NCBI GenBank assembly: GCA_032718475.1
Contig: JAUCBJ010000021.1
Location: 1 to 64,000 of the forward strand
Reading direction: 5' to 3'
Origin: Nemertoderma westbladi
Lineage: Eukaryota; Animalia; Xenacoelomorpha
Length of the DNA stretch: 64,000 nt
How positions within the stretch are numbered: the first letter of the stretch is position 1; the number at the start of each line of letters is the position of its first letter. This document shows positions 18,779-64,000 of the stretch, one piece after another. A program made the translations under genes and the position numbers. The notes under the pieces were generated by a model. That model was given only the letters and a program-made list of their open reading frames with translations, was not told the DNA's origin and ran no database searches.

Positions 18779-18789
18779 ATAACGGATAT
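18779..18789 (+). other. Element B non-tRNA primer-binding site (ATAACGGATAT)
   Basis: Abuts the 5' LTR; 11/11 complementary to ATATCCGTTAT at 18038-18048. Confidence 0.85.
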
Positions 18790-18925
18790 TTAGTCTGTAT
18801 TGCAGTGTAGGCATTAAATACAGTTTAATATTGTTCTGGTAAGAACATTAAAGGATATAGCTTCTTTATTGCAGTAAGCAATAAAGTTGAAAGTACCGGT
18901 CAACCGGTAAACCTGAACGGTCCAT

Positions 18926-34000: not shown

Positions 34001-34651
34001 GAAGCCCAATTTTAACTGATCAACTTTCACGAATCATTTAACTGCTCTGCTGTTGCATAAAGCACACCGAAATGTTACTAGACAGTTATTATAGTTTATT
34101 TATCTCCTTCTGAAATACACAGCCAGAGCGATTGCCATCGATCCAAGGCCAAGCAACAGAGCTATAATGGGGAACAGCAAGCTGAAAAATAAATGTTAAA
34201 TTACTAGTGATTACATGATAATAATAAAAATAATAATTTATTATTATTATTTATATTGTAAGCGGATTCAATTCCCTTCATTCTCCAGCCTAAAATGGGA
34301 CCAGTGGCATTTTACCAATATAGTTGGGGATACGAGATTACCAATAATAATCTCGCCTCATAACCAACTCGGTGGGGGGGGGGGGGGGGGGGGGGATACA
34401 GGCCCCAAAGCCACAGAGAGAGGGGAGAGGTCAAACCACCTCGGAGGGTAGAACACAGCTAGTCAAGGCTAGCGGCAGGGGGTAACACTCACACTCACAG
34501 GGAGTGCCAAAGTGACAATTAGTACATAAACCAATAGCAGGCAGGGGAGCACGTGGATAGAGATAGGAAAGCATCCATTGGGTACAGAAGGCCAAGAAGA
34601 GTAAGAGGTGAAACCAATATCTATGTGTATCAATCATATAGTTATTCTGTA

Positions 34652-37464: not shown

Positions 37465-39068
37465 TTATCGCTTAGTTGATCGAGCCCTGCCGCGTCCTCG
37501 AAAACTGCGCACAGGTGACTTTGCTCGCGATATGGGACTTGTGGGGCGAGTCACTGGTTTCGTTTGGACGTTGAGAGACGGTGCGACTATTTCCTCGCAA
37601 ATTCGTCTATTTGGCATCCCAAAACCTCGACCGATTCCTCGTGACCGATCAGTTGTCACTACAGTTGGTAGAACGTCTGGGAACGCGCGAGAAACGGACG
37701 ACGCAGACCCAAGAGTAGCTTGCGCCCCCTTTTGATCAGCTGGTGTATGTCCCGATCCTCCTGTTGGTTCTCTAGGAAGCGATACCGTATCCCGAGTAAT
37801 TCGAATAGTCGTCTCAACTCCCTTGCGTTCTTCTATATTGATAGACTTCTTTAACTGTTGGCCCACTTTCTGGACCCGTATGATCCTACCCTGTCCGTCC
37901 TCCCGAGGGTGACGTGCAGACGGCGCAACCGGAGTGGCTGGTATATTTGTCGCCTCTAGGACCTCCTCTTCCTCGAATACGCTCGCTCGTATACGTTTAT
38001 GGTAAAACGCGGCTCGGTACGCCCATGCGACGGTTAACCAAGCTCCTTTATTCCGCCTTTCAGTTCGGAAACGATCGAATTCACCATACGTGATGCGATT
38101 AACGACTTTCTGAAAATTCCACGTGTTTTTGTTATCCGGGTGAATCTGTAATAGATACTCGCGCACTACTCGGAATCCACTGTCGTGGGGCAAAATATCG
38201 ACTACCTCGATAAGTTCGTCATATTGGGGCATAGCGGAGATGTATCCTTCCGACATCATCGTTTGGGGATTTACCGCCCAAAATCCAAGATGCGCTCTCA
38301 TCGGAAACCGTCTTCTTTGTGCCGATACATGTTCGTCGGCTAAATCTTCCCACTCATCGAATAATTTTCTCACGAGTTTTACAGATTCGTGTTCATAGGG
38401 TATGTCTCTTAGTTGGCATTCAGATGCTCGATGTCCTTTTATATTGCAATAAGTACATTGAGCCATAAATCTCCAGCAAGTATAAAAGGTATGAGACCCT
38501 TGATCTCCACACCATCCACAGATTAGCTGAGTCGTAGTAATGTGCTTTCCACTGCACTTGGTCGAATGATGTCCAGCGACGCCACATTTACCACACATCG
38601 TATTGGCAGGGTACCACACTCGTTCGTATATAAGATCTCCAATCGGTCGAGCGCTTCCTCCCACACTATAATCGTAATCATCTGGATCTATGGGTTGGTA
38701 GGTTTCTGAAGGTTGTATACAAACTATAGCATCTGTTGCTTCAAGTTGTCGAATCTCCGTCTGAGATTTCTTCGGGAGGTTCCTTTCTATCTCAAGAAGT
38801 TCCTCTAAAGGATCGTCAGCGATCGTAGTAGTTACTTCGAAATCATCACCAAGGTGACCGATAGGCGCACGCGTCTGCCGTGATTCGTTCGTAACCTCCA
38901 CGATACCGTCGTGTCATATTTAGTGTTTGCGAGTTTCGCTGTACTTTCTGATAATTCCTTTATACCAAATATAGTGTAGTCCTTGGCTCCAAATCTTTCG
39001 AATGGCGCTGCTGCCTCCTCTTGGATATCATATCCCCATCTCGGCTCTCCTTGTATCCCTTTCTCCAT
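37465..39068 (-). CDS. Extra 3' ORF of element C: triple CCHC-type zinc-knuckle protein with a basic RG tail (one frameshift near 38905)
   Basis: 478-aa ORF with CGKCGVAGHHSTKC, CGWCGDQGSHTFYTC, CTYCNIKGHRASEC and RGRGRAR; an overlapping ATG-initiated 78-aa ORF joins by a one-base shift. Confidence 0.75.
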
Positions 39069-39732: not shown

Positions 39733-41826
39733 TTATTTACTAGTATTAGGTGGAGATTTGTAGTCTCCAGACTCGTTACGAGTCTCTTCAAGAAGTACGA
39801 GACGTTGAGTCGGTCTGTCTACTGTACGACCGTCAATTGTCCGTACCGTCACAGTTCTTGTCACTCCATCCATAGATGGATGTGTGGCTAAAATTACACC
39901 TGTTATCCAGAAGCGTCTTTTTAGATTCACTTCTGCTAACAGCACGTGATCTCCCGGCTTTAATGCGCGGGTGTTATTATACCAAGTTGTTCTGGCAGAA
40001 ATAGAGGGCAAATAATGGTTTTGCCATATTTCCCAGAATTTGTTAGCTAGTAGTTGCGTGATTTTCCACGCTTTTCTACCGTAGCTATCGCCTTCCATTG
40101 GAATAGAAATAGGCGTCAATGTGGTCGGTGCCTGCATTAGCAGGTGTGCCGGTGTCAAAGCAAACTGAGATTGTTTGTCATCGGGTACTAATACTATTGG
40201 TCTAGTATTTAGTATTGCCTCGATTTCAACAAACAGTGTTGTCAGTTGGTCGTCTGTCAATATGTGGTTTACTGGAATGACCTTTGCCATTGCCGTTTTT
40301 ATAGATCTAATCAATCTCTCCCAGACTCCGCCTCTCCATGGACTATCTGGAGGATTAAACTTCCAAACAATCTTGTGAGGTTGTAGTTCGTTCGAGATTT
40401 GATCATGATCTAATTTCTTAAAGGCTCTAGCAATCTCATTCCGAGCACCAACAAAGTTTGTCCCTTGGTCTGAGTACAAGCATTTCACTAGTCCGCGTCT
40501 AGCGATAAATCGCCGCAATGCTAGTATAAACGCGTTGGTGGAAAGATCCATCACACGTTCAATATGAACTGCCCTACTGGACATACATGTGAAAATCAGT
40601 CCCCAGCGTTTTACTAGTATACGTCCACGTTTCGTATGTATGGGACCAAAGCAATCAATTCCAGTCTCTGTAAAAGGTGGTCTGAATGCTTGAAGTCGTG
40701 CTTGTGGAAGTTCACTCATTTCTTGGGTACCTATTCTAGAATGTACCTTTTTACAAATAATACACGTACGTGTCACTGAACTTAATGCTTTACTGGGTCT
40801 AATTAATACAAATCTTGTACGTAAGTAGGAAAGACAGTGGTGTCTTCCAGCGTGTTTCAGATGTAAATGTGCGTCCAGTATCATTGCACGTTGTAGTTCG
40901 TGATGTTGTGGTATTATTATTGGGTATCTAAAGTTTGTGTTAAAGTCAATGTTTTGAAGCCGAGATTTATGACAAATTAAGCCATTATAAATAATCGGAC
41001 TCCAACTCAGTATTGGTGACGACTTGATTGGTTGACCTTGATTTATAGATGTGAATTCGCGCGCGAAATATCGCAGTTGGTAATGGCGAATTAATTTAAT
41101 CTCACACCTGTCAATCTCAGCCAATGTAAGTCGACGTGTAAAGTCGCGTTTGCCTTTAACGTATTGTACAAAACGTACAATCCACGCTAATTTTCGGCAA
41201 GCGTTCGTCCAAGAATCTGTTAAGTTTACAATACGGTCGACGTAAGTATTTGTGACGTCATCAGGTAAGTCAATGGAGAATTTGGAAGGTTTTGATTTAC
41301 TAGAAGGGCCCACGGGTCCGCCGGTAAGTATTCCCTTGTTGATTGTTGATCCGTCCGGGTCTACAAGTAATTTGTCCTTCTTCGTCTTCTTACCTTGGTT
41401 GTCAGTACTTTGTAAGTCGATCGTTAATGGTGGTTTGAACTCTATGGGGTCAGTGGGTTTCGGTAAACTTATTTTTCTGCCGATATTAATCCCAGGTCTC
41501 ACCATAGGTTGCAAGTTTGGTATGTCTCTTGAGCGCAAAGTAACACCTGTATTTACATTAGCGTAGGTACTACCCACATCTGTAATACATGAGGTTTCAC
41601 CGTGCTTATGGTCGCTCAAGTGTGTCAAAATTGGTAGTTTGTCAATACAAGGCCGCTCCAATAGGGAAACTGCGGCTTTTCTATTTGTCAATATGTTACT
41701 AGTGTCTGGTAGAACATTTTGTGACATGTCTGGTGAAATGTTTCGCGGAACATCCGGCGAAATATCTAATGACGTGTCTAGCAAAACGTCTGGTTGACTC
41801 TGGTAACGTATCTGGTTGTTTGTCAA
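39733..41826 (-). CDS. pol: Element C integrase (HHCC, DDE core, BEL C-terminal domain); separated from RT-RH by a 2-nt deletion near 41800
   Basis: HLHLKH..CIIC, GIDCFGP, YSDQGTNF, GGVWERLIRSIK, EIEAILNTRP, DGVTRTVTV, RPTQRLVLLE. Confidence 0.92.
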   Translation of the reverse strand: MTNNQIRYQSQPDVLLDTSLDISPDVPRNISPDMSQNVLPDTSNILTNRKAAVSLLERPCIDKLPILTHLSDHKHGETSCITDVGSTYANVNTGVTLRSRDIPNLQPMVRPGINIGRKISLPKPTDPIEFKPPLTIDLQSTDNQGKKTKKDKLLVDPDGSTINKGILTGGPVGPSSKSKPSKFSIDLPDDVTNTYVDRIVNLTDSWTNACRKLAWIVRFVQYVKGKRDFTRRLTLAEIDRCEIKLIRHYQLRYFAREFTSINQGQPIKSSPILSWSPIIYNGLICHKSRLQNIDFNTNFRYPIIIPQHHELQRAMILDAHLHLKHAGRHHCLSYLRTRFVLIRPSKALSSVTRTCIICKKVHSRIGTQEMSELPQARLQAFRPPFTETGIDCFGPIHTKRGRILVKRWGLIFTCMSSRAVHIERVMDLSTNAFILALRRFIARRGLVKCLYSDQGTNFVGARNEIARAFKKLDHDQISNELQPHKIVWKFNPPDSPWRGGVWERLIRSIKTAMAKVIPVNHILTDDQLTTLFVEIEAILNTRPIVLVPDDKQSQFALTPAHLLMQAPTTLTPISIPMEGDSYGRKAWKITQLLANKFWEIWQNHYLPSISARTTWYNNTRALKPGDHVLLAEVNLKRRFWITGVILATHPSMDGVTRTVTVRTIDGRTVDRPTQRLVLLEETRNESGDYKSPPNTSK

Positions 41827-44800
41827 TAGAAGGCCGCTCCAATAGAGAAACTGCGGCTTTACTATTTGTCAGTATGTTACTAGTGTCTGGTAGAACATTT
41901 TGTGATATGTCTGGCAAAATGTCTGGTTGGCTGTCTAGTAACGTGTCTGTTTGACCGTCTGGCGATATGTCTGGTGTAGAAAGGCTCGCAAGTCTTCCTC
42001 TCTTGACCTTTGAAGTTATATCTTTCCATTTCGCCTTCGGTTTTTTCTTGAGTTTAGCCGCCGTCCTTTTCTTTGCCTTCCCCTTTTTTGGTTTCTTGAT
42101 TTCGGCGTCCTTAGGGATGGTGTTAGACTTGTTGTCGTATAACGGTGGCCAATCTTGCGTCGATTTCTGCAAGAATTGGGGTCCGTGTTGCCAAAATTCT
42201 TTGTTCTCCGGTTTACAGAATTCCTCAGGCATCATTCCTCGCGACGCAATATCGGCTGGGTTTTGTGGTCCGGGACAATGTCGCCAATCTTCTTTTATTG
42301 AACGGTCTAGAATCTCTGCGCGACGGTTAGCTACGAATGTCTTGAATTCAAGTGTGTCGTTGTTTATGTAAAATAAAACCAACGTCGCGTTAGTCCAATA
42401 AAATATCTGTAAACTTGACTGTAGTTCTGTCTGTATAAGGTTCACGATGGTGGTTGACAGGGTTGCGGCTTGTAGCTCAGCTCGTGGTGTCGTCATATAC
42501 TTAGTAGGCATTGTTTTTGCCTTAGAAGTAATGAGCGAAACATCGAATTCTTCTGAGTCTACTTGTCTGCGCAAGTACGCTACCACACCAAAACCGTTGT
42601 CACTGGCGTCAGAAAAACAATGTAATTCCAAGTTGTCAGGAAACGTTGTTTGTAATGGAAAGTAGACTCTGGGTATGGAATAATCCTCTAGCGAAGATAA
42701 TTCTGCCTCCCAGGTCTTCCATAAGTCCACTTGGTCTGATGAGATCGGCTCGTCCCATGTCAGTCCATCTTTCCAAATACTGCGCATATAAATGCGGGCT
42801 TGCAGTATTATTGGACTGATGAATCCTAATGGATCGAACAATCGGCTCAATTTTGACAAGCATGATCTCTTTGTCAGTGTGTTTTCTTGACTGTCCAGTC
42901 TTACCTTCACTCGAAAGTTGTCCGTGTTTGGGTCCCAAAAGAGCCCCAACACCTTGGTCGTCGGTAGTGGTTCGAACTCTAGGTCTATGTCACCACCTCC
43001 ACGCTCAGTCGTTCCGAATGAGTCTACTAATTCGGCACTGTTTGAGGCGAATTTGGTGAGGTTAAAACCTCCGCCCGCTAAGCAGTCCCGTAATTGATGT
43101 GCTACTGTTGTAGCACGTTCTACTGTGTCGCAACTCTGTAAACCGTCGTCGACGTAAAAGTCACGTTCCACAATCCTAATTATCTCTGGGTCATACAAAT
43201 GTTTCTGATCCCTAGCGGCTTGCTTTAGGGCATACATCGTACAGTTTGGGCTGTCCCTGGCACCGAAAACGCGAACTTGCATTTGGTAAGTCGCCGGTGG
43301 TAGACTTAAGTCTCCTTCCGGATACCAGAGGAACCTCAAACTGTCTCTGTCTTGCTCTAACGCTCTCACTTGGTGAAACATAGCTTCAACGTCGCAAGTA
43401 AAAGCTACTTGACGCTGACGGAAGCGCATAATCACCCCCATAAGATAATTATTCATGTTTGGTCCATCCATCAACTTGCTATTGAGGGACATTCCCTCAA
43501 ACAGAGCAGCACAGTCATTGACTACACGTACTTTGTCTGGTTTGTCGGGGTGTCTCACAAAGTGATGTGGCAAATAGTATGTCTGGTTAGTCACTATCTC
43601 TGGGTTAGTCATTCGGATAGCGTATCCCTTGGTCAAATACGTCTCCATCTGAGTGTTGTACTGCAGATGGGCTTTCTCGTCCTTTAATAGACGTTGTCGT
43701 ATTGAGTGTAGACGTCTTAAAGCTAGTGGGTAGTTATTTATGAGTTTAGGACTTTGGCTACGCCATAACATCCCTACCTCATAATGTCCGTCTTTCGTCT
43801 GGCGGATAGTATCTTCCATGATCTTCAAAGATTGTTTCTCTTGTTCCGACATACATGGTTCGTAGCTACCAGGTTCAGCTGTATCTTGTTCTAACCACCT
43901 GATAGTCTTCTCCGTTAATTCTTTGTCCAATACAGCTTGTTCCACTTGATGATTTCTCAACTCGTCATCATCGATATCGACGGGCATTGTTGAGGTTGTT
44001 GGGGTAGGTAGACTCGCAAGCCTTCCGGCGTTATCATCTGTCTTCGATGGAATCTCTAGCTGACTCGTCTTCTCCCCAAGTTCTAAACTCACCTGGTGGA
44101 TTAGCTGCTCCTTGTGACTTATCATACTAGTTACACGTCTGTCATGTTTTGTATGTAAGGTAGTATGGTCCACGTCGTGTGAAAAGGAATGAATTGAATT
44201 TGTAGTTAATAAACTACATGTACTTTGTACATCGTCTTCCTCGTCACTTATGTCCAGTGTGCGCACAGGCGCTCGAGTATACCACCCTATCGGCGTCCTA
44301 CAGGCGTATGCGTTTCCCGCTACGACTGCCGATGGTCTGGTTTCCCACACTTGATGTAGGTTGAATTGGTCTGTCCCGATCAGCATTGCTACCGATCTAT
44401 AATTGACAGGACATTCAGGTACACCAAGGTGTCTGAAATACTTACGGTCCTCCAAGGATTGCTCTGGGACAGGACCTAGTAGGTTACTAAAGTCTTTGGT
44501 GGCCGCAAAAGTCAAATCCTTGAAGGGTAACAAAGACCTCTCCTTTTCGCTGTGTTGCGATTTTGGAAGAAGAGTGTCTAAGTCCAACTTAACTCGTGTC
44601 ACTGGTATTGCACGTTGTCCGTGCATACTACTTACGGTGTAACTGACGCGCTTACCTTGTCTGAGATCCGTTACTACATCAGCTATCTGTTCATCCACGT
44701 AGCTGTGAGATGAGGCTGAATCCAAGATAGCGTAGATTCTCTTGCTCCCCTTTATGCCAGTAATCTTAATCGGAATTACACTGAATCCCTTTAATTGGTC

Positions 44801-45550
44801 AGTCGTCAGAAGCGCGATCGATGGTTGTTCGTCTCCATCAGAATATACGTCGTCGTCTTCTGACTCTTCGTCCGACGATCCGGATTGTTCTGAGAAGCAA
44901 TCCTTGATATGTGTCACAAAGGTTGGAGTCGTTTTCGATTCTCGATTTTTGTAGGCCGCATTACATTTCGCTGCTGCTTCCGGGTATTCCCTGGCGAAGC
45001 GTTTTGTCGGCGTGTGGCTGTCTGTATGGAGCAGACCGTCGTGGTTGCGTCCACAGGATGGACAAGTGTCGGTATTTGGGCAATCCTTGCGAACGTGTCC
45101 GTGTCGCGTACACCGCCAACAAGAGTCCAATGGCCGTATCTGCAGCCGTCGTTCTTCCGAGTTTAACTCGCGAAACTGTCGACAACCTCTCAACTTGTGA
45201 CCGATATACCGCTTGCCTAGATGCTCGCAGTATTGGCAGCCGCTGAAGTTGGTACTGAGTTGCTGTCTCGTCTGTTTTGTCCCAATGGGCGCAGATACCC
45301 TACTACCGTCCGAGAATTGTCGTGATTCCGTCGGTGTGGCGTAAGTGGCCGTCTTAGTGGATGTTGTCTGGGGTTTTTGTCGGTTTGAGGATGGCAAGGT
45401 GATTCCTTCTGCCACGATGTGCTGGTCAGTGTAGTTGGATCGAGTTTCTACCACTGCCTCCCTGGATATCAAAAGGTACACATCCTCCAGTTTTAAGAAT
45501 CCACCCCGCTCTTCTCGCTGGTATTCGATCTTCCTCCACTCCCGACGAAG
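41699..45550 (-). CDS. pol: Element C Gag zinc knuckles, protease, RT and RNase H
   Basis: CWRCTRHGHVRKDC, AILDSAS, YYLPHH..KVRVVND, DVEAMFHQV, FGARDSP, FYVDD, FDPLG, FSDAS, TPRAELQAA, NPADIASRG. Confidence 0.95.
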   Translation of the reverse strand, partial: LRREWRKIEYQREERGGFLKLEDVYLLISREAVVETRSNYTDQHIVAEGITLPSSNRQKPQTTSTKTATYATPTESRQFSDGSRVSAPIGTKQTRQQLSTNFSGCQYCEHLGKRYIGHKLRGCRQFRELNSEERRLQIRPLDSCWRCTRHGHVRKDCPNTDTCPSCGRNHDGLLHTDSHTPTKRFAREYPEAAAKCNAAYKNRESKTTPTFVTHIKDCFSEQSGSSDEESEDDDVYSDGDEQPSIALLTTDQLKGFSVIPIKITGIKGSKRIYAILDSASSHSYVDEQIADVVTDLRQGKRVSYTVSSMHGQRAIPVTRVKLDLDTLLPKSQHSEKERSLLPFKDLTFAATKDFSNLLGPVPEQSLEDRKYFRHLGVPECPVNYRSVAMLIGTDQFNLHQVWETRPSAVVAGNAYACRTPIGWYTRAPVRTLDISDEEDDVQSTCSLLTTNSIHSFSHDVDHTTLHTKHDRRVTSMISHKEQLIHQVSLELGEKTSQLEIPSKTDDNAGRLASLPTPTTSTMPVDIDDDELRNHQVEQAVLDKELTEKTIRWLEQDTAEPGSYEPCMSEQEKQSLKIMEDTIRQTKDGHYEVGMLWRSQSPKLINNYPLALRRLHSIRQRLLKDEKAHLQYNTQMETYLTKGYAIRMTNPEIVTNQTYYLPHHFVRHPDKPDKVRVVNDCAALFEGMSLNSKLMDGPNMNNYLMGVIMRFRQRQVAFTCDVEAMFHQVRALEQDRDSLRFLWYPEGDLSLPPATYQMQVRVFGARDSPNCTMYALKQAARDQKHLYDPEIIRIVERDFYVDDGLQSCDTVERATTVAHQLRDCLAGGGFNLTKFASNSAELVDSFGTTERGGGDIDLEFEPLPTTKVLGLFWDPNTDNFRVKVRLDSQENTLTKRSCLSKLSRLFDPLGFISPIILQARIYMRSIWKDGLTWDEPISSDQVDLWKTWEAELSSLEDYSIPRVYFPLQTTFPDNLELHCFSDASDNGFGVVAYLRRQVDSEEFDVSLITSKAKTMPTKYMTTPRAELQAATLSTTIVNLIQTELQSSLQIFYWTNATLVLFYINNDTLEFKTFVANRRAEILDRSIKEDWRHCPGPQNPADIASRGMMPEEFCKPENKEFWQHGPQFLQKSTQDWPPLYDNKSNTIPKDAEIKKPKKGKAKKRTAAKLKKKPKAKWKDITSKVKRGRLASLSTPDISPDGQTDTLLDSQPDILPDISQNVLPDTSNILTNSKAAVSLLERPSIDKQPDTLPESTRRFARHVIRYFAGCSAKHFTRHVTKCSTRH

Positions 45551-48484
45551 TCAATGGTGGAGTCGTCCTATGATCTTTAATAGGACTGTAGGGGTATTCC
45601 CGTAGTCAAGTTGTCCAATGGATCTCAAAGTAGTGATAGCGTTCTTTATCTCGTCAGCCAGTTTCAATAAGTCTACGGGTTTAGTAATAGCCCCTCCCTT
45701 ACAGAGTTCCTCTATCACTGACCTGGCCATGCTGACTGTACCTCCGTAGATCGAAGTTAAACGATCGTACGCTAGTTCGAAAGCGTCCGGTACACCAACG
45801 AAGGTCTCCGCCAAACGTTTAGGTTCTCCTGACAACGTTTGAAGCAGGTAATTAAACTTCTCCCGTGATGTAAAGGCGCACACGGCGATCTGAGATTCGA
45901 TATAGTCTACGAAAGTATGCCAGTGTTTTGAGCTACCGGAAAACTTCGGTGGTTGTTGTACCGGCAATCCCTGTCTGGCTGCGAATTTCGCTATCTCCTC
46001 AGCAACGTTCAGAGTTTCGCGTCCTTGGTTGGTAATCTGGTTGATATCCCTTCTTGGCGCTTTTCCCTGATACGAAGTATGTTTTGAAGGTACCGGTCTT
46101 TGTGGTTCCTTCGGGTGTCTATTGTGTTCGAATTCAGTGTTCCTCGAACTATCGGTTTGAACTTCCTCCAGACGTTCCTCAATCTGAGCCAACTTGTTAA
46201 CAACTGGTCGCAGGATGTCGGCGAACTGTTGTGTACTGATTGCGTCCGTTGGTTGTAACGTCTTCTGTGTTGGTGTATTTTGTGGAGGATTGTCTACAAA
46301 GGAGTTGTCTGAACGCTCGCGTTTATATTCATCGGCCGCCCCTGTTCTAAATACCTCGCGTTTCGGGTAATCCGATTCGCTCGAAGTACTACTATCATCT
46401 GGATATGGTGGTCGACGTGTTCGCGTCCGTTGCGTCGTACGAATTCTAACGTTTCGTTTCGGAACATCGTCCACTGATCTCCGTTGTTCGGTAGGCTCAC
46501 AAGTCTTCCTCGAAGTCGTAGATTGCGATGTAAACTGGTTGAACGGTCGCGTATCCACTGGTCTCCGTTGTTCGGTAGGCTCACAAGTCTTCCTCGAAGT
46601 CGTAGATTGCGATGTAAACTGAACCGGTGGTCGGACGACAGCGTTTGAATCCAAAGGCTTTGTAGGCCTAAACGTCATTGGGTACGTGTAGTGCATAACG
46701 AGTTTTGGTGTCGAAGGTGGACTCACCTGTTTAGTCGTCAGTAGTGCAGGTCTGGTCAACAAACTACTACGATCTGTAATCGGTGGGTTACTTACCTTGA
46801 CTTTTAGAATAGGCGACGACGTTGCTCTTGGCGGTGTAAACTTGTCCGGAATAACAAACCTGTGTTCCGTCGCACCACGGATAGGAGAAATGTTACTACT
46901 ACCCGCAATCGAAACAGGTTCCTTAGTCGTAACTGGTGCAAACATAGGAGTTACTTGAGGGAATCTTTGACATAAGTCTTTAACTAATTGTCGTTCCCGT
47001 CCAGGTGCTCCTATCGAACCTTCCTTCATTCGTTCCTGGATTTGGCGGTGCCTTACCTCCATCTGGTCTAAATCATGTCCATCTCGAGATCTCATCGATC
47101 GATCGCGGGCTTGTAGATCCAGGTCTTCCTTGGCGTTGGCTAATTCTCTCGCCTTCTTCTCGAGTTCGAAACGAAGTTTAACTTCTTTCTCGCGTTGTTC
47201 CGTTTGTTGTTGTTGCGCCTCGAACTCCGCTTGTCGTATAGCTGATTGAGCCTTTATTTGCCGTTTTTTCATTTCGGTTCTCGCTTCTGAAGCTAACCTT
47301 TGTCGCTCTAACTCGGACGCTGCCGCTGCCGCTGCCGCTGCTGCTTGTCGCTCTAACTCGGCCGCTGCCGCTTGTCGCTCTAACTCGGCCGCTGCCGCTT
47401 GTCGCTCTAACTCGGCCGCTGCCGCTTGTCGCTCTAACTCGGCCGCTGCCGTTCGTTGCGCTAACTCGGCCACTGCTGCTTGTTGTGCAATGTCCAACTC
47501 TAACCTTTCCATTTCGGCTACTTCCAACTCAGCTTGTTCTTGCAGATGAGAGATTCTCGCAACATTCGCAACGCGTAGTTTCTCTTCTTCTGCTGCTACT
47601 TGTGCCATTAAGAATTGAGTTTGTTCCTCCCACTCTTGTTGTTGTCTGTAGATCTGCTGTTGTCGAGCAATTTCTGACGTAGCCATACTCACCTCGCCAA
47701 TTTCGCTGCGAATACTCACCAGTGATTGATCTAGTGTTCCCGGTACCGGTTCGATTTGTGCGAGTGAAGTTTCCCTCGTAGCCTCCGGCACGGTTTCCCA
47801 ATCTCCGACGTCCTCGCCGCACATACGTAAGTGATCCGTCAGGTGTTTCAATTGTCCATCCAGCCTATACAGTTCCTGTTCTTCCTCGGGCTGCAATAAT
47901 TCGTCCGAAACTGACTCACCTAACAACTGGTCCGCTTGTTCCTGTTGTATCTGCCTAATCGTCGACTTAAACTGAATCAGTTTCTCTCTAGCGATCATTA
48001 GTTTCTCGAGGATTCTAAGTTGAGTATCCATGTCCTGTCTCTGTCTAGCTAGATCTTGTAGACCAATTAGGTTATCTACGGACTTATATACTTTACTCTG
48101 TACTCTAACCTGGAGGGTGTAGAACTCGAATCGAGACATCGGAGCGGTCAACTCGTCTAATATGCGTTGGCCTTCTCCAATACTCCTGGTTATATGCGCC
48201 ATGTATCCTCCGACGCTTCTAACCACACTTTCTGTGCTTCCTGCTGAACTTACCATCTCCGTTTCCCTGTATCTAGGTTGCGGGACCGTTAGGAAATCCT
48301 CAGTCCTGCCGTCGCCTCGTACTACGGCATCCGGTACTCCCGTTGGATGTACTGGTGACGCGCACGGTGTAGGTTCGGTAGGCTCACGAGTCTTCCCCTG
48401 TGGTTCTTCCGCTTCTGACTTATCTCCGTCACATGAGTCATAGTCGGTTTGTGTATTTTTCGTATAGTCTTGTTTGTCACTCAT
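45551..48484 (-). CDS. gag: Element C Gag N-terminal part (coiled coil, AAAELERQ repeats, DUF1759-like); in-frame TGA at 45551-45553
   Basis: PPKFSGSSKHWHTF..KFNYLLQTLSGEPK; the frame continues after the stop into LRREWRK and the downstream ORF. Confidence 0.9.
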   Translation of the reverse strand: MSDKQDYTKNTQTDYDSCDGDKSEAEEPQGKTREPTEPTPCASPVHPTGVPDAVVRGDGRTEDFLTVPQPRYRETEMVSSAGSTESVVRSVGGYMAHITRSIGEGQRILDELTAPMSRFEFYTLQVRVQSKVYKSVDNLIGLQDLARQRQDMDTQLRILEKLMIAREKLIQFKSTIRQIQQEQADQLLGESVSDELLQPEEEQELYRLDGQLKHLTDHLRMCGEDVGDWETVPEATRETSLAQIEPVPGTLDQSLVSIRSEIGEVSMATSEIARQQQIYRQQQEWEEQTQFLMAQVAAEEEKLRVANVARISHLQEQAELEVAEMERLELDIAQQAAVAELAQRTAAAELERQAAAAELERQAAAAELERQAAAAELERQAAAAAAAAASELERQRLASEARTEMKKRQIKAQSAIRQAEFEAQQQQTEQREKEVKLRFELEKKARELANAKEDLDLQARDRSMRSRDGHDLDQMEVRHRQIQERMKEGSIGAPGRERQLVKDLCQRFPQVTPMFAPVTTKEPVSIAGSSNISPIRGATEHRFVIPDKFTPPRATSSPILKVKVSNPPITDRSSLLTRPALLTTKQVSPPSTPKLVMHYTYPMTFRPTKPLDSNAVVRPPVQFTSQSTTSRKTCEPTEQRRPVDTRPFNQFTSQSTTSRKTCEPTEQRRSVDDVPKRNVRIRTTQRTRTRRPPYPDDSSTSSESDYPKREVFRTGAADEYKRERSDNSFVDNPPQNTPTQKTLQPTDAISTQQFADILRPVVNKLAQIEERLEEVQTDSSRNTEFEHNRHPKEPQRPVPSKHTSYQGKAPRRDINQITNQGRETLNVAEEIAKFAARQGLPVQQPPKFSGSSKHWHTFVDYIESQIAVCAFTSREKFNYLLQTLSGEPKRLAETFVGVPDAFELAYDRLTSIYGGTVSMARSVIEELCKGGAITKPVDLLKLADEIKNAITTLRSIGQLDYGNTPTVLLKIIGRLHH

Positions 48485-49281
48485 TTCGGTAGTTGTAAGT
48501 CAAGTAAAGTGAGTGTCAAGGTATCAAATTTACCGTATTTTATCTAAACGGTACTAATTACAGTCATATAAAATTAGCCTACCGGCCGATTTTATAGCAG
48601 ATGGATAAAATTAGCCTAGACGGCCAATTTTACAGCAAATAAATGTCACGGAATAAGTATATAATAAAATTAGCCTAGCGGCCAATTTTATAACAAATAA
48701 ATCGGATAACGATATGCGTTATCAAAAGGTAAATTAAATACAATAATACGGACTAATTCAGCAATGAACAAAGAAATCATACGGAATGCATAAATACTTG
48801 AGACAGTGGAACCCACAATAATTTTAACTAATACGGTAATGCCTAACTTATTTATGCAACTTTTCGAACTCACCCACTCCAATAATTCTCCAGAAAAACA
48901 GATTCCCAGATACAAACCGGACGTGAACCTTTCCGTTTTCAGCGTTGCGGACGAAGCGCGATTTTCCCAACCAAAGTTGTTGAGTTATCTATCTCCCAAA
49001 CTTGCTAAACACGGTCTTGCTCCCGTTACAGTCTAGAAATGAGTTCTGAATCCTGAAAAACAAAAGAGTTAGGTTTTACTTTTACGAAAAATTTTGTACC
49101 GGTACAATATGGTATTTAAACCCTTTTAAACACCGGTATTCAATTCCAAAATATTTTACACGCGGTTCAAATCAAATTTTATTTCAAAAAATTAGCACTT
49201 AGCTAATCAAATATAAATTTTTACCTCAAAATACAAAATTTTCAAATAACTTTAGTCCTACCGAACCGTAGTTCAGTAAAA

Positions 49282-49292
49282 CACATTCCTAC
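49282..49292 (-). other. Element C non-tRNA primer-binding site (sense GTAGGAATGTG)
   Basis: Abuts the 5' LTR; 11/11 complementary to LTR 50324-50334 (sense CACATTCCTAC). Confidence 0.85.
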
Positions 49293-50770
49293 TATTCGAA
49301 GAGACAGTAACAATACCTGCAATATCCTACTGTAAAGTTTGTGAATCAAATCATAAATCCGACCTTCTCACCAAAACAGTAAACTCTAAGTAAGCGAATA
49401 TATTGCAGTATCGATCTCTTATAACCGGTGAGGCAGAAAACAGTCTACGAGCAGACAAACTTCGATAAAACAAAATCCCGCGCAGCGAATCCTAAAATCA
49501 GGCTGACTCACTGACGGACTAAGGGGCTCGTATACCTTGCCGCGGTGTGATTTATATGGTTGGGCGAAAGGGACGCTAGCTAGGTACAGAGGCAGAGATT
49601 TGGAGATGTCTAACTAGCGGGCAAAGCACAGTAAGGACAAAGTTAATTTTATATATTTTGAGGTGTAAATAATTTCTAACGCGCGCGTGTGTTAATTCTA
49701 AACAGTCAAAAGCAGTTTTGCTCCTTCACATATATAATTACTGGGTACGGTGTGCATTTTACAAATATTCTAATTTTGTAACTTGTAGGTCCAATACTCA
49801 CGAATGATAAGGTTCCTTCCCCTCTTGCGTATTTCCAGGACTCAAATTCAGGCATAAGGTTAATGCTACGCCCAGAATTCGGCAATTTTAATTTACCAGG
49901 TCCCTAATACTAAGAAGAAATGTGTTAGTTTACTACTGTAGGCGTACAGTTACAAATAGCTATCCTGGCTCTTATCTAGAATTTTAATCACCTAGGTAGG
50001 CTGGGTAACTTCCTATCAAGACGTTGGCGGGGACACGGTAGATGTTAGTATATCCCTAATAGCCTCAATTTATTTTGCGCCTAGTTGTAAACTGCCCTAC
50101 CGCCTGAACGGTACAATCCTAATTCAGGTGAAACACAGCAACCCTCCTAGCCTACAAGTTCTAGTGCAATGGACACCGTTGTACTACAAATAGTCGCAGA
50201 CGCACCTGCACTTAGCAAGAGTTAGGCGTACAGTTTGCTGCACCCTACCAATGTGTATGCTTCGTACCGGTGTGCCTACGTCCTATCTGCGTACTAGTAT
50301 CTGCCTGCTCTCTCTCTCCCCCCGTAGGAATGTGAAGGTCTACTGTGGTTTTTTCCTGAATCAAGACAGTACGGTCCCTAAGATGTAATTTTAGGCTCAC
50401 AGCGTGTCACTACTTCTACCCTTTTATCTTTGGTCTTACGCTTAGGTAGCAAGGCGTCGAACGCTGTCTAACCTTTCAGGCGATGGGCGAATAACTAAGG
50501 TGGTATTGCGGGTTGTCTCCTGTCTACATTCCCTTGATGTTCCCGTTCATCGCTGCGGCCCGATCTCTAGCCGGCCATCCTGTTCCTAAGAGTGTTCACC
50601 GTAGTGAATCATGGTGAAAAGAAAAGCAGGTAGCGGTATTTCTGAATTTATTGCAGATAATAATACAAAATGTAATCTGAAAACTAATGACAGAATAAAC
50701 AAATATCAGATAACTCAGAAGAGATAGAACATTGATAGATAGGATTGATAACTAATGAACAAATCGCACC

Positions 50771-50917
50771 TTTATATACCAAATTTGTGCCGCAATCAAT
50801 CGAGAAAATTCTCGATTGTTCTATAGGTTCTAACAGGTTTTTAAAGATAACTATTGGTCCAGCTAATATATAACTTGCACGACATTGGTTACAATCAAAT
50901 AACTACAGTCTCATTGG
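50771..50917 (-). promoter_or_regulatory. Putative Pol II promoter: three CCAAT boxes about 30 bp apart and TATATAAA
   Basis: ATTGG on + at 50853, 50884 and 50913; TTTATATA at 50771-50778. Motif match only. Confidence 0.55.
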
Positions 50918-51003
50918 TTAATCTAGGTACAAACAAATGCAATTTAATTTGTAGCGGTCAATTTAAATGAGTTGAAATTCTGCACAAAAAATAATTCGCA
51001 CTT

Positions 51004-51072
51004 ACTAGGATTCGAACTCAATACCTACTACACATATAATTTCCAACGCTCTACCGACTGAGCTACTGAACC
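51004..51072 (-). other. tRNA-derived A-box/B-box cassette in the C LTR (copy at 36363-36431)
   Basis: Sense GGTTCAGTAGCTCAGTCGGTAGAGCG...GAGTTCGAATCCT; intact D-stem GCTC/GAGC, degenerate anticodon and acceptor arms. Confidence 0.7.
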
Positions 51073-51851
51073 ACTTGACTAATAGGCGTACAATAGATAT
51101 AGTAAATACAAATGAGGACTCAATGCAATCTTTTACAAAGTTAATTCGAATAAAATAAAATTTTGAAAATCCACGGCATTTAGGGAATATAATTCTATAC
51201 TGTATTACTGATTTACTGGTCAGTTCATTAATCACAGAGTTGCAGACCGGTTATAGTTTTTGACCGTTATCTAGTATCAATTACATATTTGCTGTTATTC
51301 TGTATTGCGATACGGATGACGGATTGCGGATGACGAGACATTAGACGGATCCCATTTCTCAAGTACCTGATCAAGCACTGACGAAAATGTGGGAGCCCGA
51401 CAGGAGGGGACGGAGAACAAAACAAACATCGGTTGAGTATAGGAGAACGGGGGGAAGTATGGAGAGGAGGTGTTGACATGCGTAGAAGTGAGAGGAGTGC
51501 AATTCAAGCGTGGGGAGCGAGCAGTGAGAGAGGAAGAGTCCCAAGGGACCAGAGAGAGAATAAGGGACAACAGGGTCCGTGAGAGAGTTTTTGAGTAGAG
51601 TTAAAGAAAATTGTGTGGAGAGAGAGCACAATTGTCTCAAACAGAGACACCAGATACCTTGGTGCAACATAGCTCACGATTGCACCAAGGAGGGCTAGTA
51701 ATAACCCACCCAGGGGGGGTGGTCAGGAAAGCCGACCCCGAGAAAAGAACTCCACCCCACACCCAATACTAGATTGGGTTCCAGCGGAATTGAAGCGCAC
51801 TTAAGAGAGATGCTATCTTCTTACCGGGAAGATAGCATGGGGGGAGGGGAG

Positions 51852-52494
51852 TGTAAGCGGATTCAATTCCCTTCATTCTCCAGCCTAAAATGGGACCAGT
51901 GGCATTTTACCAATATAGTTGGCGATACGAGATTACCAATAATAATCTCGCCTCATAACCAACTCGGAGGGGAGGGGGGGGGGGGGGCAATACAGGCCCC
52001 AAAGCCACAGAGAGAGGGAGAACACAGCTAGTCAAGGCTAGCGGCAGGGGGACTCACAGGGAGTGCCAAAGTGACAATTAGTACATAAGCCAATAGCAGG
52101 CAGGGGAGCACGTGGATAGAGATAGGAAAGCATCCATTGGGTAGAAAAAGGCCAAGTAGAGTAAGAGGTGAAACTAATATCTATGTGTATCAATCATATA
52201 TTTATTCTGTTTTACATGATTTACTGGTCAGTTCATTAATCACAGAGTTGCAGACCGGTTATAGTTTTTGACCGTCATCTATTATCAATTACATATCTGC
52301 TGTTATTCTGTATTGCGATATCAATCACATACTAATTCTGTGATATTATCATTTGGAACATTAACATTGAGAAACACATTAAACTCTGTTATTTTCCCCA
52401 ACGGCCTTCGGCCAAAAGGACACTAGCTCAGCAGCCCAGCAGTTAGGTGACGCGTACCAAACCTTACCCGGTCGGGATCTACGATCCCGTCACA
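51852..52494 (+). repeat. Element D 3' LTR (643 bp)
   Basis: TG...CA; homologous to 34257-34651 plus 51205-51312. Confidence 0.85.
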
Positions 52495-54971: not shown

Positions 54972-55965
54972 TTACATATATCTCTGAGGAACAAGCTTTT
55001 CTCTCGTACTCCTTCTTGTCTCCACAGTTTTTTGATCCAAATTGTCCTTGTTTATTACCACTGATGGGATAAACTTTTTCAAGTATCTCCGGTTGCGCCA
55101 GTATAATCGTCCTGTTTCCGACTTCACTAGATAACTTCTACCACGAGGTTTGATCTCCATAACCTCGGCGATCAGATCCCAAGTTTTCTTTTTCGTGTGT
55201 TGAACTCTAACAAATCACCAAATGAGAGTTGCACCAACTCACGAGAACCTTGATCCTACATTTCTTTGGCATTCTGTCGCAGAACTGTTGCTTTCCGATC
55301 AGCCTTTTGTACAGTATTCCTGTCAACCACATTGTACACTACAGGATGCGCAGGCAATGGTGTTCTTGTTGGTCTGCCAAATAACTTCATTGCTGGACTC
55401 ATCCCATCATTTCTTGGAGTGTTCCTATACTTTTCCCTTCTGGATATCTCTTGATGGAAAAGTTTTCTTTACCAATAGCTTCATGCTCTTCACTGCTGCT
55501 TCAGCATAACCATTGGCGATATGGCGATGAATGGTCGTGTTTGATACCCCACTTTTTGCAGAATTCACTAAACTTCCTACTTTTAAACTGTGGACCACCG
55601 TCGAAGACATCAACCATTTTCATCTCTGCGCCTGCCCTCCAAATTGTAATGTACACATAGCCATACAATTTCTCCTTTAATCTCAAGATCCTCGGCGTTT
55701 CGATTTCTTCCAGTTGCTTGTGATTCAGAATTGATACAAGTGGTTTATGATTGACCACAAGCTCAAACTGATCACCACAAAGATATCTCTGCAGTTTCTT
55801 GACAGCCCAGACCACTGCCAACAATTCTATAGCGAGTATCGTGTTTATGTTGGGGTCGCAGTTCTTGAATTCGCTCTCAACAACTTCCAAACTTGACCTG
55901 ACTCTTCTCGCCACAATGCATAACCCAACCCTGTCTTCTGGGCAGCATCCGTTTCCAATCTGAGT
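54972..55965 (-). pseudogene. Gypsy (Mag-like) pol remnant: RNase H fused by deletion to integrase C-terminal half
   Basis: LETDAA..GLGY, IELLAVVWAVKK..NHKPL, DGGPQF..FCKKWGIKH, NGYAEAAVKSMK, RNRRYL..RRSTR. Confidence 0.8.
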
Positions 55966-56001
55966 TTTGCAATTACAATTACAATTACGATTACAATTAC
56001 G

Positions 56002-56376
56002 ATGACATTACCAAACTTCTATGAAAAAGATTCAAGGATCTGGTTTGATCAAATCAAACAAATCCTCTCTAACTCATCCAAAGAAGTTATGAAATACAGT
56101 CTGCTAAGAGTCCTACCAACAAATTTAATCTTTGACAGCAGCATACATGTTTCTGATGATTTTGAAACTATAAAAACAAGTGTAATTAATTTCTTTGACG
56201 ACAGTGGGGAGCGAAGACTAAAGAAGCTGGTCCAGGATCAAGCCCTTGGCGACCACAAACCCTCCATTACCCTGAGACAACTGTTACGTTTAGCTCCGCA
56301 TAACGAAAACATATTTGAACTACGATTTTTGGAGATTTCACCCGAACCTGTTCGTTTAGCACTAATATCAATATAG
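56002..56376 (+). pseudogene. CsRn1/Kabuki-like Gypsy gag remnant
   Basis: LPNFYEKDSRIWFDQI and RLKKLVQDQALGDHKPSITLRQL match the LP.F...WF.Q and LGD.KPS motifs. Confidence 0.75.
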
Positions 56377-59994: not shown

Positions 59995-60122
59995 CTGTAA
60001 ATATTAATACATTGTACATCAGAAGGCATTATATGTTTTTGTACCTTTCTTACAAAAATGTATGACAGTTGCATTCATATGGAGAAGGGGACCATATATT
60101 GCACATCACAATAACCAATAAG

Positions 60123-60443
60123 TCAATATGATAATGCTCTCCATAGCGAAAAATATCAACCGGCCCTATTGGGGCTCGAACCCGGTACCTAGGTTTCAAA
60201 CTTCTGGTTATCATCAGCCGGGTGAGTGTACTGAGCTACCAGACCGTTCAGATCCGGTCTGGTAGCTCAGTACACTCACCCGGCTGATGATAACCAGAAG
60301 TTTGAAACCTAGGTACCGGGTTCGAGCCCCAATAGGGCCGGTTGATATTTTTCGCTATGGAGAGCATTATCATATTGTCCTATTTACATTGTATATTTAA
60401 TACACCGCGTCCCTCGCCCCACAACAATTCACTTATTATTATT
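60123..60443 (+). mobile_element. Palindromic Penelope-like/SINE-like insertion
   Basis: Perfect 123-bp inverted arms 60124-60246 and 60255-60377; (TTA)n tail; 13-bp flanking direct repeat AATAACCAATAAG at 60110-60122 and 60444-60456. Confidence 0.8.
60278..60321 (+). ncRNA. Minimal type I hammerhead ribozyme motif (mirror copy at 60180-60223, -)
   Basis: ACCCGG-CTGATGA-TAACCAGAAGTTT-GAAA-CCTAGG-TA-CCGGGT: helix I, both core boxes, palindromic helix III, GUA triplet; helix II has a U-U first pair. Confidence 0.75.
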
Positions 60444-60936: not shown

Positions 60937-62029
60937 TGTTAAACCATTTGCGGCAAAAATGTGTCGTTTTTGTGCAATGCGCGAACTACTCTAAGACTGG
61001 CATTATCTCGAGGGATTGGAGAATGTGTAAAACTTACACCATCTAGCGTTTATTTTGGTACAGAGCTGTAGTGACGAAATCACCAGCCATTGGCCAGCAT
61101 TTCTCTTTGTCCTGTATCCTCTGTGTTATTTTCCGGCAAATCAGCACAATTTTCACTTTGCCAATTCTTGAGGCTTTGTTAACATATGAATAGGCCGCAG
61201 TGCGACAAAATCATTCATTCTGACTTCTGCCCGGACTGTCAGAGGGTTATCAACCACAATATATTATCTCTTGTATTTCACTACTGCTGTACTGGATCAC
61301 TTTCTGCACTTACAGCGAACATCGGACTGCTGATTGAATGCAGGCACCGTATATTTATACTGTTTTTATACTGTTATTCATTGTTATTTGGTAACATATT
61401 TAATATGAATACTTATAAATATATAAATACTTATATTTGGAGAATACTTAGGAATAATCGATAATTTCCCTTAACTTTCTTTATTGTTGAGGTAAGCAGA
61501 AGGGAACATGAGTAATAATTGCTTGGCTCAAATTACAGTTGTCTGTATGAATATTATGCTACTTCATAACTCCAACATAAGAGAGCTAAATTTATCCTTA
61601 TATATGACTAAAATTGGTAACAGTCGGCAAATTAACGTGTTTCAGTACTATTGTCAGTAAAGTGAGTGCGAGCGAATACTTCTACATTCCTAAAGAATGT
61701 AAAAACCATGATGTTCCATAACCCTCCGTTGTAATTAGTATAAGTCATATCTCTGTCTGATATTTAAAGTGCAGCATCTAGAGGAACTCTTGGTATTGCC
61801 CTGAAAATAAGCAGAGTTTTTGGGGATTATATAGTAGAGATCAATCGAATAATACAAAGTAGACTACCCCATTCTCGGCCATAGAATTCAGTCTCCCACA
61901 CACAGTGGGTCATACTCCGCGCTAGACTGTCTTCTACTCCTACTGTGGTCATATTTTGTGCGGGCTGTCAGACAATATAAGACACGTAAATTAACAGGTT
62001 AAACTGATAAAGGTCTAAAAGCGCGAACA
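60937..62029 (+). mobile_element. Solo LTR of a third A/B-related BEL subfamily (1093 bp)
   Basis: TGTTAAACCATTTGCGG...AAAGGTCTAAAAGCGCGAACA; TSD TGAAG at 60932-60936 and 62030-62034. Confidence 0.9.
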
Positions 62030-62257: not shown

Positions 62258-62448
62258 GTGTACTGAGCTATCAGACCGGATGAATATTAAGTACCTTTTA
62301 TTAGGAATCCTAGGAACCTGGTTCGAGCCCCAATAGGGCTGGTTGATATTTTTCGGTATGGAGAGCTTTATCATATTGTCTTATTTACATTGTATATTTA
62401 ATACACCGCGTCACTCACCCCACAACAATTCACTTATTATTAATAACC
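62258..62448 (+). mobile_element. Degenerate second copy of the 60123-60443 family, hammerhead core lost
   Basis: Shares GGTTCGAGCCCCAATAGGGC through CACTTATTATTAATAACC, preceded by an inverted-arm remnant GTGTACTGAGCTATCAGACCG. Confidence 0.8.
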
Positions 62449-64000
62449 TATATTGAGTATCTACAGCTATTTTACTCATGGCTATTATTATCATCACCTT
62501 TCATCTGATTGGTCCAGGATGCAGGGCCGGGTGGAACCACTTAGCAAAATCAATGTTTCTTATTAAATTAGCTCTATTTCCTTGTACTTTCAGTGACCTA
62601 TGGCTTTCTAATTCCCTCCCAATATTGTAAATTTGTGCTTCGTTATGCGGTGAGTGCAAAACAAAGACCAAAGACCCACTGTACAAAACAACGAGGTAAA
62701 GTCGCGTCTCAAAGAGCGTTAGGTCCCAAAGATCGTTAGGTCCCATTGCAATTTAAAGGAGCAGGTTAATAAAAGAGCAGGTTAAAGAGGCGTGTTGGGG
62801 GAACCAAAACAATTAATTTTATTCTATGTTGGTTTTAGTTTTAGCATATTGAACAGTCTTGTGGTAGCTTGTTTATCATCAACTTGTAAAATCTTAGGGA
62901 GTTATGAAAATAGACCAATAATTCAGAATATGAATCTAACTTGAGTAATAATTCCGCCCGTGTTTAACTGCCTATATTTATTGAATTGGAGTTGAGATGT
63001 TAATGCAACTGCAATAAAATATGTAATATTATGGGTTTTGTTACGAAATTGAAAAATCAAGGAAGCATGTCACCACGGAGGGGATGAACCAGCGCTTGAT
63101 ATATTGGAATGTTTTATTAATGTTTTCTTTTATACCTATCAGCTAGGTATACCAGATGGACTTTCATCAGATCTCTTTTCATAGGATTTAGACAAACTGA
63201 AACTGACAAACTAAATAACAGAAACCCTAGAGTTATTTACGAATCACAGGTTTTGCAAAGAAAGCCTTTACAGAAAGCTCAATTCCACAGAAAGCGGGTA
63301 TCATGTATACCCAACATCTACCCAACTTAAACCATGTAAAAAATGACCTAGTGTAAACCCTCTTCTTGCCATTTCATTCCTGTTGTATAGTAGTAGCCTA
63401 CATCAATCACTATGTGTTTTATTATGTTTCTAATTAATATTCATTAGTTAATATATTGCATTTAGTTAATAGTCAATATGTTTGTAACAACTTGGATAAT
63501 TTGATATCATTTGAAGAATTCCGCTCAGAAAAAAAAATGGGCCACTGCCAGCCTTTGTCTTGAAGTTCAATGAGTCTTGTACCAGTAGCAGTGATTCGAA
63601 GCAACGTAAATCTGGTTAGGGTGGTGGTACTACCCTCATGGTCTATTAACTTTGGGATAATCATATTTCAGCCAATAAAAGAGTGTGTTATATAATGATA
63701 TAGCAAACAGCTTCTGGGTTGTTGTATTTCTCGACATGCTCGCTATGAGATTTTGAATAGAGCTGTTCCTAAGATTTATACTTTCTTCGGTGATGTTTAT
63801 AGGGATGACAGTATGACAATTAACATGGGCAGTGATTTTTTATGTCCTTTTATTTGGCTTTTTTTGTCCCTTTTTTTTTTACGAATTATGCATAATGACT
63901 TTTGTTGTCCTTTTAATGATTTTTATTGTCCTTTTAATGACTTTTTATGTATGTATTTCTTCAAACTGTCAGACTGCTGATTTCTGGACTGTCAGACAGT

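Follow-up and report, generated by a model that had tools for sequence, protein, structure and literature searches.

The window analysed here is a 64,000-nt (64-kb) stretch of Nemertoderma westbladi DNA (contig JAUCBJ010000021.1, positions 1 to 64,000, forward strand). It contains three long terminal repeat (LTR) retrotransposons, A, B and C, each with a 5-bp target-site duplication (TSD), and we asked how their reverse transcription could be primed. Element C lies on the minus strand, with a 5′ LTR of 1907 nt (49293-51199), a 3′ LTR (34652-36558) preceded by a purine-rich tract, three differences between the two LTRs, and the TSD TACAG. Element A, on the minus strand (5′ LTR 13567-14721, 3′ LTR 2282-3438, TSD AGTAC), and element B, on the plus strand (5′ LTR 17553-18778, 3′ LTR 29149-30374, TSD GGCCA), are non-autonomous.

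The coding region of C (39733-48499, minus strand), which is split over three reading frames in the window copy, contains gag (DUF1759, E = 7e-10), protease-reverse transcriptase (RT)-RNase H (Peptidase_A17, E = 2e-42) and integrase (DUF5641, E = 3e-21). Because these three families occur together, C is of the BEL/Pao type; the order gag-protease-RT-RNase H-integrase, the paired LTRs, the short TSD and the polypurine tract agree with this. The nearest named proteins, at about 40% identity, belong to molluscs, echinoderms, cnidarians, a tunicate and a fish. Gag and protease are common to C and the other two elements (DUF1759 was found in B), but A and B encode no RT or integrase, so these enzymes would be needed in trans.

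An 11-nt complement between the primer-binding site and the LTR

In A, B and C, the 11 nt directly 3′ of the 5′ LTR, taken as the primer-binding site (PBS), are the exact complement of an 11-mer inside the element's own LTR. In C, the candidate self-primer is at 50324-50334 (minus strand, LTR positions 866-876, unsplit by an intron) and the PBS at 49282-49292 (minus strand). In B, they are at 18038-18048 and 18779-18789 (plus strand), and in A at 14291-14301 and 13566-13556 (minus strand). The three 11-mers, starting at LTR positions 421 (A), 486 (B) and 866 (C), are unrelated in sequence, pair at offset 0, and end their perfect complementary run at exactly 11 nt. No PBS of the three starts with TGG, and in none is the complement split by a GT-AG intron. 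The match is beyond chance, as 0 of 410 PBS swaps between elements reach 11 nt. Over the wider set of elements described below, 23 of 29 primers terminate in AC, and 17 of 29 have a core length of 11 nt (range 10-15).

In four sequencing runs of the C family, neither the 11-mer nor the surrounding 50317-50345 has a variant at 2% or more, and no splice joint was seen at the 11-mer. The invariance of 50317-50345 is not significant alone, with about 15 variant places in 151 nt. A candidate intron of C upstream of the 11-mer (50439-50356) was left unsupported.

An 11-nt LTR complement of an LTR-adjacent PBS, used without tRNA, is described for Tf1, Tf2 and Tj1 of the Tf1/sushi group of Ty3/gypsy chromoviruses in the accessible text of PMC7175516 and PMC4600332, with cutting by RNase H after base 11 as the likely model. 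In Tf1, the primer is the first 11 nt of the RNA, and both flanking duplexes are formed with LTR sequence downstream of these 11 nt (10.1101/2022.12.06.519325, as far as its accessible text goes).

A and B are inverted relative to each other, with interiors 80-86% alike and LTR-LTR identities of 98.7% (A) and 99.6% (B). Both have lost RT, most of RNase H, and integrase, and their primer/PBS pairs differ. A solo LTR of the same family, D (60937-62029, plus strand, TSD TGAAG), has no PBS. Over their 3′ 600 nt (13567-14200, 18160-18778 and 61400-62029), the LTRs of A, B and D are far better conserved than over the promoter-side half.

Relatives with intron-split complements

An alignment search with RT/RNase H gave 79 metagenome and 13 genome-contig loci at 32-44% identity, and no relatives among viral contigs. 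Both LTR 3′ ends are present in 20 loci, of which 18 were usable; two loci were left out before the complement search, L024 because it belongs to the family of L026 and L063 because its LTR start was not found. Thirteen records labelled as bacterial metagenome-assembled genomes have animal BEL/Pao contigs inside them (L080-L092), likely host contamination.

Most relatives have a PBS that is not tRNA-like and has no contiguous complement in the LTR; the complement appears across a GT-AG intron. A script found a complement of at least 11 nt in 14 of 21 elements (9 spliced, and 5 contiguous, namely A, B, C, L067 and L027). Intron-split complements were thus found by script in 9 of 18 relatives, and four more were found with splice sites set by hand (L005 and L087, 11 nt; L035, 10 nt; L081, one mismatch). 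The sole relative with a TGG-type PBS, L079, has no LTR complement.

The scan of a second batch, 50 loci lacking a second LTR end, yielded 11 intron-split cases not seen before, 7 that repeated earlier families and 2 contiguous ones judged credible. The 7 duplicate-family matches, weak or in-gene matches (L008, L013, L050, L084, L085) and loci without a match were excluded. For the 11 second-batch loci, the LTR ends were placed by the core match and a terminal ACA rather than by a TSD.

In the intron-split relatives, exon 1 contributes just 3-10 nt of the primer, and 3-10 nt is too short for a first exon. Between L082 and L083, three exon-1 bases differ, and their three PBS partners differ too. 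L067 has one LTR copy with an intron-type acceptor and another that is precisely joined (1-326 and 6694-7103), and the two are 88% alike downstream; the pair may be a DNA footprint of intron loss, or two copies may have been joined in the contig. In a quick tree, L067 and L027, both intron-less, fall among intron-bearing loci. Two relatives have a second strong donor upstream of the primer, near LTR positions 139 (L026) and 146 (L055), from which alternative splicing could give a primer-less mRNA.

A predicted second helix upstream of the primer

According to the original prediction, the primer duplex of C extends upstream of the 11-mer through two outer helices, and that of B through one. All sequences named there are present at the positions given, with one G-U pair in each C helix. 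The prediction holds, as a family feature, for the helix nearest the core and is not supported for the distal ones.

The proximal outer helix of C is formed by 50339-50345 in the LTR and 49274-49280 in the leader (both minus strand). It has 7 bp and follows a 4-nt bulge, giving a 4x1 loop, a geometry found in 3 of 27 elements. B has a 4-bp helix with a 2x3 loop (18032-18035, plus strand, with 18793-18796), and A a 5-bp helix with a 3x1 loop (14305-14309, minus strand, with 13554-13550). We searched for the best helix whose start lay at most 5 nt upstream of the core (primer strand) and at most 3 nt downstream of it (PBS strand). The arms are not alignable between families, and an alignment-based covariation test was replaced by a swap test, in which leaders were exchanged among 27 dereplicated elements. 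L079, with its TGG-type PBS, was excluded from the helix tests, and L035, L065, L017 and L083 were removed as near-duplicates.

The proximal helix averages -6.29 kcal/mol, as compared with -3.24 kcal/mol in swaps (p = 1e-5), and a proximal helix of at least 4 bp occurs in 17 of 27 elements, as compared with 27% in swaps. The excess is retained in the 9 second-batch loci (p = 6e-5), without A, B and C (p = 1e-5), in A, B and C together (p = 0.0014 and 0.0012), and in the 7 intron-less elements (p = 0.002). The 7-bp helix of C outdoes all 26 foreign upstream arms, and of the 26 foreign leaders it outdoes 25. As a family, the helix consists of a 2-5 nt bulge and then 3-8 bp, and its arms differ by family (GGAT/ATCC in L020, GTGG/CCAC in L087, AGGA/TCCT in L022, CAGTAGA/TTTACTG in C). 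When the search was made symmetric, 20 of 27 helices had the longer side of the loop on the primer strand and 4 on the PBS strand, as compared with 222 and 247 of 542 helices in swaps. By these predicted pairings, the proximal outer helix is a real feature of the clade. It requires at least about 8-12 nt of RNA upstream of the primer.

Tests on lone elements are weak, and relatives were therefore needed. When the whole outer flank is compared with shuffles, p is 0.75 (30 nt) and 0.48 (60 nt) for C, 0.47 and 0.12 for A, and 0.064 (30 nt) and 0.003 (60 nt) for B; this test is too blunt for single elements. In 15 dereplicated elements taken together, whole-flank energies give z of -2.3 to -3.2 for the outer and +0.8 to +2.3 for the inner flank.

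Distal helices, leader hairpin and inner helix

The doubtful distal helix of C would pair GGACCGTA in the LTR (50370-50377) with TACGGTTC in the leader (49263-49270), both on the minus strand. Shuffled sequences give an 8-bp helix somewhere in a 60 x 40 nt field 158 times in 1000 for C and 46 times in 1000 for B, and A has no distal helix. The equally doubtful B helix (18007-18014, plus strand, with 18804-18811) has a partner that also folds into a local leader hairpin. Over the family, pairing beyond the proximal helix shows no excess (p = 0.084), and neither distal helix serves as evidence for an extended duplex. At 50373, about 99% of the C-family depth in the four runs reads A on the plus strand; a distal C-G pair therefore becomes U-G in most copies if the leader arm is unchanged. 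Two relatives, L021 and L066, have long distal helices upstream of the primer that are better than those with all 26 foreign leaders.

A competitor missed by the original prediction is a leader hairpin of C directly 3′ of the PBS (49256-49281, minus strand), with 11 bp and a C(UACG)G loop (z = -3.0). It uses both leader arms, the proximal one as its 5′ arm and the distal one where it overlaps the UACG loop, so that it competes with both outer helices. Its pair probability is 0.90-0.99 in three of four ensembles and 0.74 in the fourth. In a trimmed C construct, the proximal helix and the hairpin are within 0.2 kcal/mol of each other.

Downstream of the primer, where Tf1 forms its flanking duplexes, C has an inner, Tf1-like helix (50313-50319, minus strand, 3′ of the 11-mer, with 49304-49298). 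Its shuffle p is 0.015 (20 nt) and 0.055 (30 nt), and its ensemble probability is 0.3. No inner helix was found in A and B, the duplexes of the Tf1 pretzel show no excess in the clade (inner, p = 0.57; third duplex, p = 0.79 and 0.93), and the U5-leader duplex of C has a probability of 0.0.

Predicted transcript start and end

C has a predicted RNA polymerase II (Pol II) promoter at 50742-50917 (minus strand), by motif match only. Three CCAAT boxes (50917, 50888 and 50857, spaced 29-31 nt) are followed by the TATA box TATATAAAG at 50778, which is 444 nt upstream of the 11-mer and close to the 440 nt originally given. An initiator-like motif with +1 near 50746 (TATA+32) predicts a 412-nt leader. 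A strict TATA box is present in 11 of 30 elements: one lies 32 nt from the primer, one 44 nt and nine 92-459 nt, all on its upstream side. No TATA box about 30 nt upstream of the 11-mer was found in A, B or C.

In 22 of 26 elements, a poly(A) hexamer of the form A(A/T)TAAA follows downstream of the primer, and A and B have an aligned ATTAAA near the LTR end. In the relatives, the distance from acceptor to hexamer is 0-133 nt. Such hexamers would leave an R region after a cut at the primer, which argues against an RNA 3′ end at the 11-mer.

A proposed internal primer cut from a longer leader

We propose that a longer 5′ leader is cut after the 11-mer and that the 3′ end so formed serves as the primer, a reading that we consider somewhat better than even. 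For the clade, an internal primer is supported because a proximal helix is present, exon 1 holds 3-10 nt of the primer, and the TATA boxes lie mostly 92-459 nt upstream. The suggestion that the transcript does not begin with the 11-mer, which may instead end a cleaved leader, is thereby supported indirectly for the clade, while the evidence on C itself is mixed. The direction of the original prediction is right, for a partly wrong reason.

The course could be as follows. First, Pol II would start upstream of the 11-mer, in C probably at the TATA box and initiator near 50746, although a leader of just 10-20 nt upstream of the 11-mer would suffice. In most relatives, removal of the LTR intron would build the 11-mer, and A, B and C would be intron-less forms. 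Second, the 11-mer would anneal to the PBS and, after a bulge of 2-5 nt on the primer strand, 3-8 bp more are predicted to form with bases 3′ of the PBS. Third, by analogy with Tf1, the element's RNase H would cut 3′ of the 11-mer, typically after AC, and RT would extend the 3′-OH through U5 and R, where R for strand transfer would run from the cut to the downstream poly(A) site.

Speculatively, the bulge and outer helix would replace the Tf1 pretzel as stabiliser of the duplex. The Tf1 primer is reportedly not removed, and a primer attached to a leader would therefore need a plus-strand stop; the bulge and outer helix may halt plus-strand copying of the primer at about 11 nt. Retention of the intron would need an unspliced template for the upstream part of the LTR, from the 3′ LTR copy or a second RNA.

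Several points weigh against an internal primer. Transcript start, splicing and cleavage are predictions made from DNA. The helix geometry was chosen after the data had been viewed, related elements are not independent, the pairs are predicted, and 4 of 27 elements have no outer helix of at least 3 bp. In L021, the TATA box and the primer, which follows it, are only 32 nt apart. C shares about 40% identity with the relatives, and its long branch cannot be placed by the quick tree, so we infer rather than observe that their evidence carries over to it.

Predicted folding of the window elements counts on the same side. The core duplex of C has a probability of 0.91-0.92 with up to 20 nt of upstream RNA and 0.0 at 30-45 nt; in A it is predicted with 12 nt upstream, and in B with 0-12 nt. 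That the core is predicted only with short leaders speaks against a leader of 412 nt, unless it is refolded by a chaperone. When the core is forced and 70 nt of upstream RNA is included, the UACG hairpin reaches 0.90 and each outer helix of C 0.05. Among 23 relatives, those with a core above 0.5 drop slowly, from 16 to 10 elements, between 0 and 120 nt upstream. Long-range folding over 1 kb is unreliable.

Alternative origins of the primer

The alternative that survives best, although we regard it as unlikely, is that the intron-less window elements, C above all, prime exactly as Tf1 does. RNA would start at the 11-mer or within 1-2 bases of it, the inner helix and UACG hairpin would support the duplex, and the outer helices would be relics or chance. 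When RNA begins at the 11-mer, the predicted probability of the core duplex is 0.92 in C and 0.85 in B. The inner helix of C is the strongest of 27, an initiator-like motif stands at the start of the C 11-mer as well, both of which also speak against an internal primer, and the perfect run of exactly 11 in A, B and C is what Tf1 would give. The upstream TATA box need not drive the productive RNA either, as Tf2 has alternative starts (PMC5341516, accessible text).

On the other hand, A, B and C jointly retain the proximal helix (p about 0.001), a TATA box at the spacing for such a start is absent from all three, and A and B have no inner helix. C carries a full CCAAT-TATA-initiator set whose predicted start is 412 nt upstream, and the intron-split relatives are hard to fit to a start at the primer. 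C alone could be Tf1-like, given its inner helix and a modelled folding that favours a leader of 20 nt or less.

The primer could also come from another LTR copy, which seems to us rather improbable. A short spliced LTR-only RNA would anneal to the PBS in trans, as a tRNA does, or a cut after the 11-mer in the 3′ LTR copy would supply the primer, and the template could keep its intron. The absence of a cis inner helix across the clade fits this, as does the acceptor with its nearby hexamer, which resembles a terminal exon. Most lineages have kept their introns, which would be lost from a spliced template. In maize, spliced LTR-only RNAs are abundant, according to the accessible text of a preprint (10.64898/2026.05.08.723830). 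However, a PBS and primer that co-vary element by element are most simply explained in cis, and a cut in the 3′ copy removes the R region downstream.

Reading of the PBS by a host RNA (a half-tRNA or other), with LTR complementarity being incidental, is very unlikely and largely refuted: half-tRNA priming is known in some copia lineages (PMC6317226, accessible text), but each PBS matches its own LTR and not others, the PBS sequences differ between families, and the one relative with a TGG-type PBS lacks an LTR complement.

Least tenable, with next to no probability in our view, is the other original suggestion, that genomic RNA ends at the 11-mer through an upstream poly(A) signal and folds its 3′ end back on the PBS: ATTAAA in A (14314-14309) and ATTATA in B (18025-18030) do each end 18 nt before the 3′ end of the 11-mer, but the B word is non-canonical, solo LTR D has no word at the aligned place, C has none there, A(A/T)TAAA lies within 30 nt upstream in only 1 of 26 elements, both words overlap or abut the proximal-helix arm, and a poly(A) tail would block the 3′ end.

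Relation to known systems

The internal primer proposed here differs from that of Tf1 in that the conserved extra duplex uses upstream sequence, the downstream duplexes are unenriched, and the primer is often intron-split. The protein families are those of BEL/Pao, with no chromodomain match, unlike in Tf1/sushi. A, B and C thus use their own RNA like Tf1, but are not members of Tf1/sushi and do so without the pretzel.

With the Belpaoviridae of the ICTV, the elements share Gag DUF1759, Peptidase_A17, DUF5641, domain order, LTRs, the 5-bp TSD and the purine tract. In the description of that family (PMC8742986), the PBS has 18 nt and serves host tRNA-Arg or tRNA-Gly, and the LTRs measure 0.2-1.2 kb, whereas here the PBS is an 11-nt self-complementary one, and the C LTR is 1.9 kb and ends TAT...ATA. 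By their proteins, A, B and C are of BEL/Pao type without being typical semotiviruses. The C termini are unlike the TG...CA form, and a TATA end is found also in L020 and L027.

Self-priming has been reported for Tf1/sushi, Tcn1 and TAR/Houba (PMC6317226, PMC4600332, accessible text), where the primer forms the 5′ end of the RNA and the flanking duplexes lie downstream of it (10.1101/2022.12.06.519325, likewise). For the TAR/Houba/Osr-1 copia and Tcn1 lineages of plants, it was predicted from an LTR complement of the PBS, as here; they belong to other superfamilies, and the accessible text of PMC6317226 reports no intron, outer helix or start-site mapping for them.

Among BEL/Pao surveys, the main text of PMC554778 does not mention tRNA or priming, that of PMC3118150 does not mention primer, tRNA, intron or priming, and that of PMC6238403 does not mention PBS or tRNA. 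PBS and self-priming are not mentioned in the accessible text of the maize preprint, nor was anything on BEL/Pao priming found in that of PMC3601003, PMC5341516, PMC12440569, PMC13524379 and PMC8220671. For BEL/Pao, self-priming, an intron-split primer and an upstream helix were not found in the literature searched, with Repbase reports and subscription journals outside its scope.

BEL/Pao elements are described as tRNA-primed, and self-priming has been worked out only for a capped RNA 5′ end as primer. An internal primer that is spliced together, cut free and flanked by a helix would, if true, be a further way to begin reverse transcription. If splice-built, it would tie mobility to host splicing, and it would explain why PBS finders overlook such elements. 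More tentatively, as a possibility against which we would still bet, a wide animal BEL/Pao lineage may have swapped tRNA for a self-made module of 11-bp duplex, bulge and outer helix, which would set the RNase H cut and the plus-strand stop. Host splicing would license the module in most families, and a switch between UACG hairpin and outer helix may do so in intron-less long-LTR forms like C.

Other features of the window

C has a tRNA-like stretch in its U3 (about 51073-50986, minus strand), with A-box, B-box, a T6 end and a weak fold. It is present also in the 3′ LTR, has no match in ARAGORN or Rfam, and is possibly a captured short interspersed nuclear element (SINE) head or a Pol III unit. 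After the C integrase, an extra sense open reading frame of 482 aa (37465-38913, minus strand) has three CCHC-like knuckles (weak zf-CCHC, E = 0.018). C is inserted in one copy of a host repeat spaced at about 1 kb (34257-34651, 51196-51312, 51852-52320), and an intact copy adjoins.

A fragment of a long interspersed nuclear element with endonuclease and RT lies between A and B (14899-17430, minus strand), and an RNase H/integrase fragment of another LTR element is at 55501-56007 (minus strand). Two tRNA-like SINE heads in head-to-head inversion (about 60117-60385 and 62305-62452) make a large palindrome, with a third copy nearby.

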